Assembly: GCF_003334815.1 (NCBI RefSeq)
Contig: NZ_QOWO01000006.1
Direction: 5' to 3' (one strand)
DNA from: Escherichia coli
GTDB lineage: Bacteria > Pseudomonadota > Gammaproteobacteria > Enterobacterales > Enterobacteriaceae
Length of the DNA stretch: 64,000 nucleotides
Part shown: positions 32,276-35,372 of the stretch, piece by piece
How the letters are laid out: each line of letters opens with the position of its first letter
Position numbering within the stretch: the first letter of the stretch is position 1
Translations under genes and position numbers: made by a program
Notes under the pieces: generated by a model
The model's input: only the letters and a program-made list of their open reading frames with translations
Told to the model about the DNA's origin: nothing
Databases searched by the model: none

Positions 32276-32585
32276 TATTCCTTGTTATACACATTACGAA
32301 AAATAAGACATTTAAGATCATCAAAAGAGGAAAGTAAATGTATTGCGTATAAAGGGATAGATTAAATTTATTAAAATTCACGCAGGGAATAATTTATAAA
32401 AATATATCATTACAACATATATATTAATTTTATATTTATTTCGCAGCCAAACAGGATAAACATCAGTCAGGATAAAGACGTAAAATTTAAGATGAAAGAA
32501 TATCTGCCGCTTTGATAATCCCAAACAGCAAAAGCATCCGACAGCGAAGTGCCGTTATGTTCTGTGAAAGTGGAGAAGGTAACCG

Positions 32586-32777
32586 CTAACGTTGTACCGG
32601 TGATTCGACGGAGAGTGTGGATTGCTGAGCTTCTTTTTTGCTCTGATGGTGCTGCCAGGCACCGACGGACGAGTAGATAAAACGGCCAAAGAAGAAGATA
32701 AAGCTGATGAGCAGTACGATACGGGTCATGCGACTGTTAAATCGGTGTCGTTTTCGCATACTGGTTGCCTGACTCAC
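32586..32777 (-). CDS. yfgG: YfgG, small single-pass membrane protein, 63 aa
   Basis: Track ORF; GTG start; TM segment IVLLISFIFFFGRFIY. Confidence 0.65.
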   Translation of the reverse strand: MSQATSMRKRHRFNSRMTRIVLLISFIFFFGRFIYSSVGAWQHHQSKKEAQQSTLSVESPVQR

Positions 32778-32987
32778 AAAAGGTTCCTTGAAGTATGTCC
32801 CACGCTGTGGACGGTACTTACATTAAGGCACAACAGGACAAAATGGTCAATTCTTCGTTATGTAAAAAAGCGTCAGTGGATACATATTTTAATGTTATGG
32901 AAGTTAATTTAATTATTTACAATGATGATGTAATAATGATGAATTAACATGATAAACGTAATAATTCATTAATCAGGGTTATTTTGT

Positions 32988-33001
32988 TTGATATATATCA
33001 A
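32988..33001. promoter_or_regulatory. FNR box in the yfgG-pdeF divergent intergenic region
   Basis: TTGAT-ATAT-ATCAA, exact match to the FNR consensus TTGAT-N4-ATCAA, about 130 bp upstream of pdeF ATG. Confidence 0.6.
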
Positions 33002-33128
33002 TTGGTACTTTCATATGACACTTAGAATCAATGCTCTCTATAGTGATGAATAATCATCATTCGAAGTCAGGTGGGATGCCTGTCTGAATACACCTCCTTC
33101 AGGATGTGGGGGATTCTGCTGAGCATCT

Positions 33129-35372
33129 ATGAAACTGAATGCAACTTATATAAAAATACGTGATAAATGGTGGGGGCTTCCGCTGTTCCTGCCTTCTTTA
33201 ATCTTGCCCATTTTCGCCCACATTAATACTTTCGCGCATATTTCTTCCGGTGAGGTTTTTCTCTTTTATCTGCCTCTGGCACTGATGATCAGCATGATGA
33301 TGTTTTTCAGCTGGGCGGCATTGCCAGGGATCGCCTTAGGGATTTTTGTCCGCAAATATGCAGAGCTGGGTTTTTACGAAACGCTATCATTAACGGCTAA
33401 TTTTATTATCATTATCATTCTCTGTTGGGGCGGTTACAGGGTCTTTACTCCCCGGCGTAACAACGTTTCACATGGTGATACCCGTTTAATTTCCCAGCGT
33501 ATATTCTGGCAGATTGTGTTTCCTGCAACGCTGTTTCTGATACTTTTCCAGTTTGCTGCATTTGTAGGATTACTGGCGAGCAGAGAAAATCTGGTCGGTG
33601 TCATGCCTTTTAACCTCGGGACTTTAATCAATTATCAGGCCTTACTGGTGGGTAATCTGATCGGTGTCCCGCTGTGCTACTTCATCATTCGGGTAGTGCG
33701 AAATCCATTTTATTTACGTAGCTATTATTCGCAATTAAAACAGCAGGTTGATGCCAAAGTCACCAAAAAAGAGTTCGCGCTCTGGCTACTGGCATTAGGT
33801 GCTTTATTGTTGCTGTTATGCATGCCGTTAAATGAAAAAAGCACAATTTTTAGCACCAATTATACCTTGTCATTATTGCTGCCCCTGATGATGTGGGGAG
33901 CGATGCGCTATGGTTATAAGCTGATTTCGCTGCTCTGGGCGGTCGTGTTGATGATCAGCATCCACAGCTATCAAAATTACATTCCCATTTATCCTGGCTA
34001 TACCACGCAGCTGACCATAACCTCCTCCAGTTATCTGGTATTCTCTTTTATTGTCAATTATATGGCTGTACTGGCAACCCGTCAGAGAGCGGTAGTCAGA
34101 CGCATTCAGCGGCTTGCGTATGTGGACCCGGTGGTTCATCTGCCAAATGTTCGCGCCCTGAATCGCGCGTTGCGTGATGCCCCCTGGTCTGCGCTTTGTT
34201 ATTTACGCATCCCTGGCATGGAAATGCTGGTTAAGAACTATGGCATCATGCTGCGGATTCAATACAAGCAAAAACTTTCTCACTGGCTGTCACCCTTGCT
34301 GGAACCGGGTGAAGATGTTTATCAGCTTTCGGGTAACGATCTCGCGCTGCGACTGAATACAGAATCGCACCAGGAGCGCATTACCGCACTGGATAGCCAT
34401 CTCAAGCAATTTCGTTTCTTTTGGGATGGCATGCCGATGCAACCGCAGATTGGCGTCAGTTACTGCTATGTGCGCTCGCCAGTGAATCATATCTACCTGC
34501 TGCTGGGAGAGCTAAATACGGTCGCCGAACTTTCCATCGTGACCAACGCCCCGGAAAATATGCAGCGTCGCGGGGCAATGTATTTGCAACGCGAATTGAA
34601 AGATAAAGTCGCGATGATGAATCGACTACAGCAGGCGCTGGAACACAACCATTTTTTCCTGATGGCCCAGCCGATTACCGGTATGCGTGGTGATGTTTAC
34701 CATGAAATTCTTCTGCGCATGAAAGGTGAGAATGATGAACTGATCAGCCCCGATAGCTTCTTGCCGGTCGCGCACGAATTTGGTTTATCGTCGAGTATCG
34801 ACATGTGGGTCATTGAGCATACGCTGCAATTTATGGCTGAAAACAGAGCGAAGATGCCCGCTCACCGTTTTGCTATTAATCTGTCTCCAACCTCGGTATG
34901 TCAGGCTCGTTTTCCTGTTGAAGTCAGTCAGTTGCTGGCTAAATATCAGATTGAAGCGTGGCAACTTATTTTTGAAGTCACCGAAAGTAATGCTCTGACC
35001 AATGTTAAGCAGGCGCAAATCACCTTGCAGCATCTTCAGGAATTAGGCTGCCAGATTGCGATTGATGATTTCGGCACCGGCTACGCCAGCTATGCGCGGC
35101 TTAAAAATGTGAATGCCGATCTGCTTAAAATTGACGGCAGTTTTATCCGCAATATTGTGTCAAATAGTCTGGATTATCAGATAGTGGCATCGATTTGCCA
35201 CCTGGCGCGAATGAAGAAAATGCTGGTAGTGGCAGAGTACGTTGAAAACGAAGAGATCCGCGAGGCGGTGCTCTCTTTGGGGATCGATTATATGCAGGGT
35301 TATCTTATTGGTAAGCCGCAGCCGTTAATTGATACGCTGAATGAAATCGAACCCATTCGCGAAAGTGCCTGA
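33129..35372 (+). CDS. pdeF: PdeF (YfgF), membrane c-di-GMP phosphodiesterase, 747 aa
   Basis: Track ORF; N-terminal multi-TM region; degenerate GGDEF (SGNDL in place of GGDEF); EAL domain motifs EIL, DDFGTGYAS, KIDGSF. Confidence 0.9.
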   Translation: MKLNATYIKIRDKWWGLPLFLPSLILPIFAHINTFAHISSGEVFLFYLPLALMISMMMFFSWAALPGIALGIFVRKYAELGFYETLSLTANFIIIIILCWGGYRVFTPRRNNVSHGDTRLISQRIFWQIVFPATLFLILFQFAAFVGLLASRENLVGVMPFNLGTLINYQALLVGNLIGVPLCYFIIRVVRNPFYLRSYYSQLKQQVDAKVTKKEFALWLLALGALLLLLCMPLNEKSTIFSTNYTLSLLLPLMMWGAMRYGYKLISLLWAVVLMISIHSYQNYIPIYPGYTTQLTITSSSYLVFSFIVNYMAVLATRQRAVVRRIQRLAYVDPVVHLPNVRALNRALRDAPWSALCYLRIPGMEMLVKNYGIMLRIQYKQKLSHWLSPLLEPGEDVYQLSGNDLALRLNTESHQERITALDSHLKQFRFFWDGMPMQPQIGVSYCYVRSPVNHIYLLLGELNTVAELSIVTNAPENMQRRGAMYLQRELKDKVAMMNRLQQALEHNHFFLMAQPITGMRGDVYHEILLRMKGENDELISPDSFLPVAHEFGLSSSIDMWVIEHTLQFMAENRAKMPAHRFAINLSPTSVCQARFPVEVSQLLAKYQIEAWQLIFEVTESNALTNVKQAQITLQHLQELGCQIAIDDFGTGYASYARLKNVNADLLKIDGSFIRNIVSNSLDYQIVASICHLARMKKMLVVAEYVENEEIREAVLSLGIDYMQGYLIGKPQPLIDTLNEIEPIRESA

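Follow-up and report, generated by a model that had tools for sequence, protein, structure and literature searches.

The FNR operator upstream of Escherichia coli pdeF (yfgF) and the conserved leader that follows it

The yfgG-pdeF locus

The stretch of DNA analysed here, called the window below, is 64,000 nucleotides of Escherichia coli sequence, and all positions are counted from its first letter. In 5424 of 5426 complete E. coli genomes the segment 32580-33330 has a match, and its two genes are annotated there as yfgG and pdeF, so the names that an earlier, sequence-only reading of the window had given to these genes are correct. The coding sequence of pdeF, also called yfgF, lies on the plus strand (33129-35372) and encodes a protein of 747 amino acids with Pfam hits to MASE1 and EAL. 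Its divergent neighbour yfgG lies on the minus strand (32586-32777, 63 amino acids) and is probably no target of the regulatory site described below. The intergenic region between them (32778-33128) has 351 bp and 34% GC. Around the pdeF promoter there is a tract, to which no strand is assigned (32850-33049), where the GC content falls to 20-27%; this tract is a candidate for silencing by H-NS/StpA. Another very AT-rich intergenic stretch (20-24% GC) is found between yfgH and yfgG, at 32300-32500.

PGAP also annotates a hypothetical protein of 50 amino acids, WP_000017552.1, in the intergenic region (32795-32947, plus strand). Is this reading frame a gene? It contains stop codons in Citrobacter rodentium, C. 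youngae, Enterobacter and one further ortholog (L014), and is probably spurious. The conservation over 32795-32947 probably reflects promoter elements of yfgG and not coding sequence.

A consensus FNR box upstream of pdeF

At 32988-33001 the intergenic region carries TTGATATATATCAA, a perfect consensus palindrome (no strand assigned, centre 32994.5) in which the half-sites TTGAT and ATCAA flank the spacer ATAT. All 10 of the 10 specified positions of TTGAT-N4-ATCAA are matched, and there is no other exact match on either strand of the 64-kb window. The chance expectation for the exact motif is 0.09 per 64 kb, and at least one match occurred in 8 of 100 dinucleotide shuffles of the window. For the yfgG-pdeF intergenic region alone, the exact site turned up in 0.13% of composition-preserving shuffles (P about 0.0013). 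When one mismatch was allowed, two further sites were found elsewhere in the window, a count not above chance. The distance from the box centre to the pdeF ATG at 33129 is 134.5 bp. The sequence-only reading had described an exact palindrome, an AT-rich yfgG-pdeF region of about 350 bp and a distance of about 135 bp to the ATG, and the measured values agree with it on all three points.

Could the palindrome be a mere product of AT-rich DNA, or a site for CRP, with no role specific to FNR? Palindromes of A and T are enriched in AT-rich DNA, sites of FNR and CRP are related, and an exact match did arise in the 8 shuffles of the whole window just mentioned. Note that a CRP site has G where FNR sites carry T, and that the GTGA core is needed for CRP. 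The CRP half-sites of TGTGA-N6-TCACA are absent at the box. Its half-site is TTGAT, which lacks the GTGA core, and not TGTGA; thus the specificity of the box is that of FNR and not of CRP. What remains of this alternative is answered by the geometry of the promoter and by its conservation among related bacteria, as described in the next section.

Geometry and conservation of the pdeF promoter

The hexamer TAGAAT at 33023-33028 (plus strand) shares 5 of its 6 positions with TATAAT and is named as the -10 element of the promoter in a paper from the laboratory that characterised the gene (PMC3718329). It begins exactly 21 bp past the box, and the other registers between 18 and 24 bp score at most 3 of 6. 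The position of this hexamer, taken together with the published statement of an FNR box at -41.5 (PMC3718329), would place the pdeF transcription start at 33035-33036 on the plus strand, 7-8 nt beyond the -10. A start at 33036 puts the box centre at -41.5, and a start at 33035 puts it at -40.5. The -35 position is overlapped by the box and reads AATTGG, a poor match. A poor -35 is usual in promoters that depend on an activator. With the -10 at 21 bp past the box the promoter has class II geometry, and a leader of about 93 nt explains the 134.5 bp to the ATG. The sequence-only reading had left a choice between a long 5' untranslated region and an upstream-activator position for the box; the former stands, with a length of about 93 nt, and the latter is abandoned since the geometry is that of -41.5.

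For the comparison among species, a set of 17 orthologous loci was used, that is, the window and 16 other loci, the distant ones collected by protein search and contig look-ups. The named members are Escherichia species including E. fergusonii and E. whittamii, Salmonella enterica, Enterobacter soli, Citrobacter amalonaticus, C. youngae and C. rodentium; the set also includes six loci, five from Logan/ENA assemblies and one from GenBank, whose PdeF proteins are 62-82% identical to that of E. coli. All 17 loci have the motif TTGAY-N4-RTCAA, 129.5-150.5 bp ahead of the start codon as annotated. Its spacer drifts among them (ATAT, TTAA, GTGT, TTAT). The gap between the box and the -10 is exactly 21 bp in 17 of 17, and the hexamer is TAGAAT, TAAAAT or TACAAT (TAnAAT). 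In the Salmonella locus (L010) the half-site TTGAC and the hexamer TACAAT are exactly those given for S. Enteritidis in PMC3718329. Half-sites that are kept at the same position in every locus, next to a spacer that varies, show that the palindrome is not a product of chance. The conservation of the half-sites over at least four genera, the fixed distance to the -10, the missing GTGA core and the published FNR ChIP peak on the box (see below) all speak against a chance or CRP origin; this alternative is already refuted by the conservation and the published ChIP, and its probability is negligible.

Within the species, the promoter stretch 32965-33040 (76 nt) is identical in only 1563 of 5404 E. 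coli genomes and differs by at least one base in the other 3841, whereas the leader that follows it hardly varies (see below). A common T/A polymorphism was noticed at 33006, just 3' of the FNR box, where the window has TTGGTACT and most relatives have TTGGAACT. Farther upstream lies an A/T-rich block, GTAATAATTCATTAATCA (32958-32975, no strand assigned), which spans about -78 to -61 relative to the start of pdeF transcription and is near-invariant across genera. Its position could suit a contact of the C-terminal domain of the RNA polymerase alpha subunit (UP-like) or a second regulator. ArcA was considered as a regulator binding this block, and no entry for yfgF or yfgG was found in ArcA ChIP supplements.

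Another promoter-like pair, ATGACA-18-TATAGT (33015-33044, plus strand), matches the sigma-70 consensus at 10 of 12 positions. As the main promoter it was rejected, since neither hexamer is kept outside Escherichia whereas TAnAAT is invariant. It lies past the FNR-dependent -10 and may serve E. coli as a minor promoter independent of FNR, or be due to chance.

Insertion sequences have entered the region several times. In strain ES6 the FNR box is separated from the -10 by an IS1B, which comes with a 9-bp duplication GGAACTTTC, and in strain SCZE5 an IS1A lies farther upstream in the yfgG-pdeF intergenic region. In a gallium-evolved K-12 population, IS5 was inserted at -104 of the ATG, i.e., inside the TAGAAT -10 (PMC6928379). 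Two of these three insertions, the IS1 of ES6 and the IS5 of the gallium population, would uncouple pdeF from FNR.

FNR occupancy and the expression of pdeF

Is the box used in the cell? For the E. coli yfgF promoter, an FNR box TTGAT--ATCAA at -41.5 and the -10 TAGAAT have been published, and for S. Enteritidis TTGAC--ATCAA and TACAAT; both promoters are termed class II FNR-dependent, citing Lacey, Partridge and Green 2010 (PMC3718329). The start-site mapping and promoter-fusion data of Lacey et al. 2010 are used here at second hand, through PMC3718329, PMC3688515 and PMC4207228. RegulonDB lists yfgF as activated by FNR under anaerobiosis. The PdeF protein was undetectable in aerobic cultures. 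In Lacey et al. 2010, yfgF expression reportedly peaks in stationary phase and at 28 C, which would fit an output that depends on conditions.

In vivo binding was reported by Myers et al. 2013, who detected an FNR peak at yfgF/yfgG both by ChIP-seq (MOSAiCS, NCIS and CisGenome) and by ChIP-chip (Table S5, PMC3688515). The predicted site beneath the peak is TTGATATATATCAA, whose PatSer score of 16.08 is one of the highest in the list (Table S6, PMC3688515). The estimated target of the peak is yfgF, with the entry "1 known TSS, ref Lacey 2010" (Table S9, PMC3688515). The sequence-only reading had proposed that the site controls pdeF and had named FNR ChIP-seq data, mapping of the pdeF start and promoter fusions as checks; essentially all of these are available in print, the start mapping and lacZ fusions from Lacey 2010. 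The published peak sits on this exact 14-mer (PMC3688515), and the control of pdeF is supported by the peak, by the published dependence of its expression on FNR and anaerobiosis and by the RegulonDB curation.

We therefore read the 14-mer as the FNR operator of pdeF, a class II activator-dependent sigma-70 promoter, with a probability of about 0.93; the sequence, geometry and conservation were observed here, and occupancy and expression are taken from the published work. When oxygen is lacking, dimeric [4Fe-4S]-FNR would bind TTGATATATATCAA centred at -41.5, overlapping the -35 position, and would recruit and activate RNA polymerase at the TAGAAT -10; the activating contacts in this scheme are inferred from the class II paradigm. 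Transcription would begin near 33036 and yield a leader of about 93 nt before pdeF. In air the FNR cluster would be lost, the site vacated and the pdeF promoter silent.

Then why does the bound FNR have so little effect in some cultures? In anaerobic glucose minimal medium, the yfgF peak was grouped with sites that lack an FNR-dependent change of expression (Table S9, PMC3688515). This indicates that FNR binding alone is insufficient for activation in all conditions. In an hns stpA mutant, FNR occupancy at yfgF rose from 0.35 to 1.68 (Table S7), and yfgF was regulated by oxygen solely in this mutant, its +O2/-O2 ratio being 0.23 (Table S11, PMC3688515). FNR-dependent expression of yfgF in Myers 2013 thus appears weak or conditional, masked by H-NS/StpA. 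Silencing of the AT-rich surroundings by H-NS/StpA would then overlie class II activation and make the output conditional, so that in fast-growing glucose cultures FNR may be bound and yet have little effect.

The same data might be taken to mean that the main role of FNR here is architectural or anti-silencing, in competition with H-NS/StpA, and not that of a direct activator of class II, for it was bound without a change of expression in glucose minimal medium, and both its occupancy and the oxygen dependence of yfgF were higher in the hns stpA mutant (PMC3688515). We consider this very unlikely. An exact and conserved -41.5 geometry with a -10 is required for class II activation and would be needless for mere competition with silencers, the promoter has been called class II FNR-dependent in publication (PMC3718329), and silencing on top of ordinary activation explains the hns data equally well.

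The divergent yfgG gene

Does FNR bound at 32988-33001 also activate or repress the divergent promoter of yfgG? The sequence-only reading had raised this as a possibility. The palindrome does lie within a divergent intergenic region, and yfgG was about 2.2-fold higher anaerobically in the wild type (ratio 0.45, Table S12 of Myers et al., PMC3688515). The distance between the two elements is against it: the yfgG start has been reported at 2627275 (PMC4447067) and the FNR site at 2627088 (PMC3688515), which in the same coordinate system are about 190 bp apart. Counted from this reported start, the yfgG start codon follows after about 26 nt. The known positions of activation by FNR range from -41.5 (class II) to about -92.5 (class I). 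A position of about -190 falls outside this range, and shared control of yfgG is therefore unlikely. Further points against it are that Myers et al. assigned the peak to yfgF and that yfgG is missing from their table of FNR-dependent operons (Table S8, PMC3688515). Also, a conserved -35-like TTGACC (32850-32845, minus strand) points to a separate promoter for yfgG, far from the box. With the box so far from the yfgG start, the peak assigned to yfgF and yfgG not among the FNR-dependent operons, the suggestion of FNR control over yfgG was given up.

A sigma-S ChIP-seq study reported a peak and the yfgG start in the region 32800-32880 (PMC4447067). The same part of the window contains a conserved block on the minus strand, ATGGTCAATTCTTCGTTATGTAAAA, which includes the -35-like TTGACC of yfgG.

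Hairpins in the pdeF leader

Which part of the intergenic region is the most conserved? It is a block of the pdeF leader, AAGTCAGGTGGGATGCCTGTCTGA, and not the FNR box or the -10. The leader, counted from the deduced start to the ATG, is about 93 nt long (33036-33128, plus strand). Together with the ATG (33036-33131, 96 nt) it occurs without any change in 5345 of 5408 E. coli genomes, with a single copy per genome. Local folding predicts three hairpins on the plus strand, H0, H1 and H2, and all of them together in 16 of the 17 orthologs; in the exception (L017) the start codon is annotated differently, which shortens the H2 segment, and this segment gave no fold.

H0 (AGUGAUGA-AUAA-UCAUCAUU, 33042-33061) is near the 5' end; it is predicted in all orthologs, with a sequence that varies by genus. 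This region, at about +8 to +23, resembles a CRP site in some relatives, namely TGTGA-N6-TCGCA in Salmonella (L010) and TGTGA-N6-TTACA in C. youngae (L008), and the resemblance may be a by-product of the hairpin. H1 (33068-33082) has the stem CAGG/CCUG, the loop UGGGAUG with a GGA at 33074-33076, and a place within the most conserved block. In its stem 100% of the cells of the alignment are paired, and the sequence is nearly invariant, so evidence from covariation is absent either way.

H2 (CCUCC-UUCAGGAUGU-GGGGG, 33093-33112) carries a GGA at 33102-33104 in its loop. Local folds place this GGA in the loop of H2 for 15 of 17 orthologs, and in C. youngae it is in the stem; in the shortened L017 segment an H2 with the GGA in the loop is possible by eye. 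Compensatory substitutions are found in the stem, e.g., CCCUU/AAGGG, CCCUC/GAGGG and CCCG/CGGG. On a covariance-model alignment about 93-96.4% of the stem cells pair and three pairs are changed on both sides, in 10 cells. The covariation score was reached by 0 of 500 shuffles, and slid controls pair at only 31-62%. All these figures lean towards the structure because this alignment is fitted to the model. The fold of the whole leader is unexceptional (z = -0.45). In a plain MAFFT alignment a gap within H2 is misplaced, and for this reason RNAalifold found there no more than a weak long-range helix, rich in GU (-10.75 kcal/mol, covariation -0.8); the covariance-model alignment was used instead. 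A search of 32500-33400 against Rfam, with E values up to 10, gave noise alone and no family match.

What might such hairpins do? The rule for spacing in CsrA targets asks for two or more GGA motifs at a distance of 10-63 nt, of which one or more should be in a hairpin loop. The pdeF leader agrees with this rule, as the GGAs in the loops of H1 and H2 are 28 nt apart. A third GGA (33111-33113) lies in the ribosome-binding window. The Shine-Dalgarno-like GAG at 33121-33123 is weak, and this nearest GGA is 8 nt upstream of it, inside the ribosome footprint and off the Shine-Dalgarno sequence. From these features of the sequence we tentatively suggest that the leader of about 93 nt may be an undescribed element of post-transcriptional control whose GGA loops would bridge a CsrA dimer, a possibility that we hold to be well short of even odds. 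Alternatively, the GGAUG motifs, which are complementary to GCAUCU beside the start codon, may pair with the initiation region. In the literature, no paper was found that links CsrA to yfgF, pdeF or STM2503. The E. coli CsrA CLIP-seq supplements that were examined have no entry for yfgF/pdeF; their cultures are assumed to have been aerobic, and if pdeF was silent in them, as its anaerobic induction suggests, the missing entry is uninformative.

There are precedents among genes of the same pathway. Jonas et al. 2008 are said to have described CsrA-repressed leaders in the c-di-GMP genes dgcT/ycdT and dgcZ/ydeH. Like these leaders and that of glgC, the pdeF leader has several GGAs, two of them in hairpin loops, and a weak ribosome-binding site downstream, and like dgcT/ycdT and dgcZ/ydeH, pdeF is a gene of c-di-GMP turnover. 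It differs from the CsrA-repressed leaders in that none of its GGAs overlaps the Shine-Dalgarno sequence and in that no CsrA binding or regulation is on record for it.

Comparison with known promoters and implications

The promoter described here and the yfgF promoter of E. coli K-12 (Lacey 2010 via PMC3718329; RegulonDB) are the same object, identical in the box, the TAGAAT, the -41.5 position and the gene. Nothing substantive differs, and what is added is the conservation over 17 loci with the invariant gap of 21 bp. A box at -41.5 is also found in other class II FNR promoters, e.g., those of yfiD/grcA, narG and dmsA. With these the pdeF promoter shares a consensus or near-consensus palindrome over the -35, a recognisable -10 and anaerobic activation; it differs from them in a box that is unusually perfect and yet has a weak, conditional output, and in its long structured leader. 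The yfiD site, for instance, is listed as TTGATTTAAATCAA (Myers Table S6, PMC3688515). Class II CRP promoters such as galP1 have an activator of the same protein family and the same -41.5 architecture, and the pdeF promoter is set apart from them by the half-site TTGAT in place of TGTGA.

The assignment of an FNR site to pdeF is thus correct but already known: the promoter was characterised in 2010 and curated in RegulonDB, and ChIP-seq confirmed it in 2013. The site is a known and genuine operator that was derived again from the sequence, and there is little new in it. The comparative data add the modest detail that enteric genera share the box, the -10 and a fixed distance of 21 bp between the two. 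Of the elements described here, the conserved hairpins of the leader alone might lead to something unreported. If they do act as a control element, synthesis of PdeF would need both activation by FNR and relief of a block mediated by the leader. This would tie the Csr system to anaerobic c-di-GMP turnover, and it would help to explain the low expression of pdeF in fast-growing cells despite the bound FNR.
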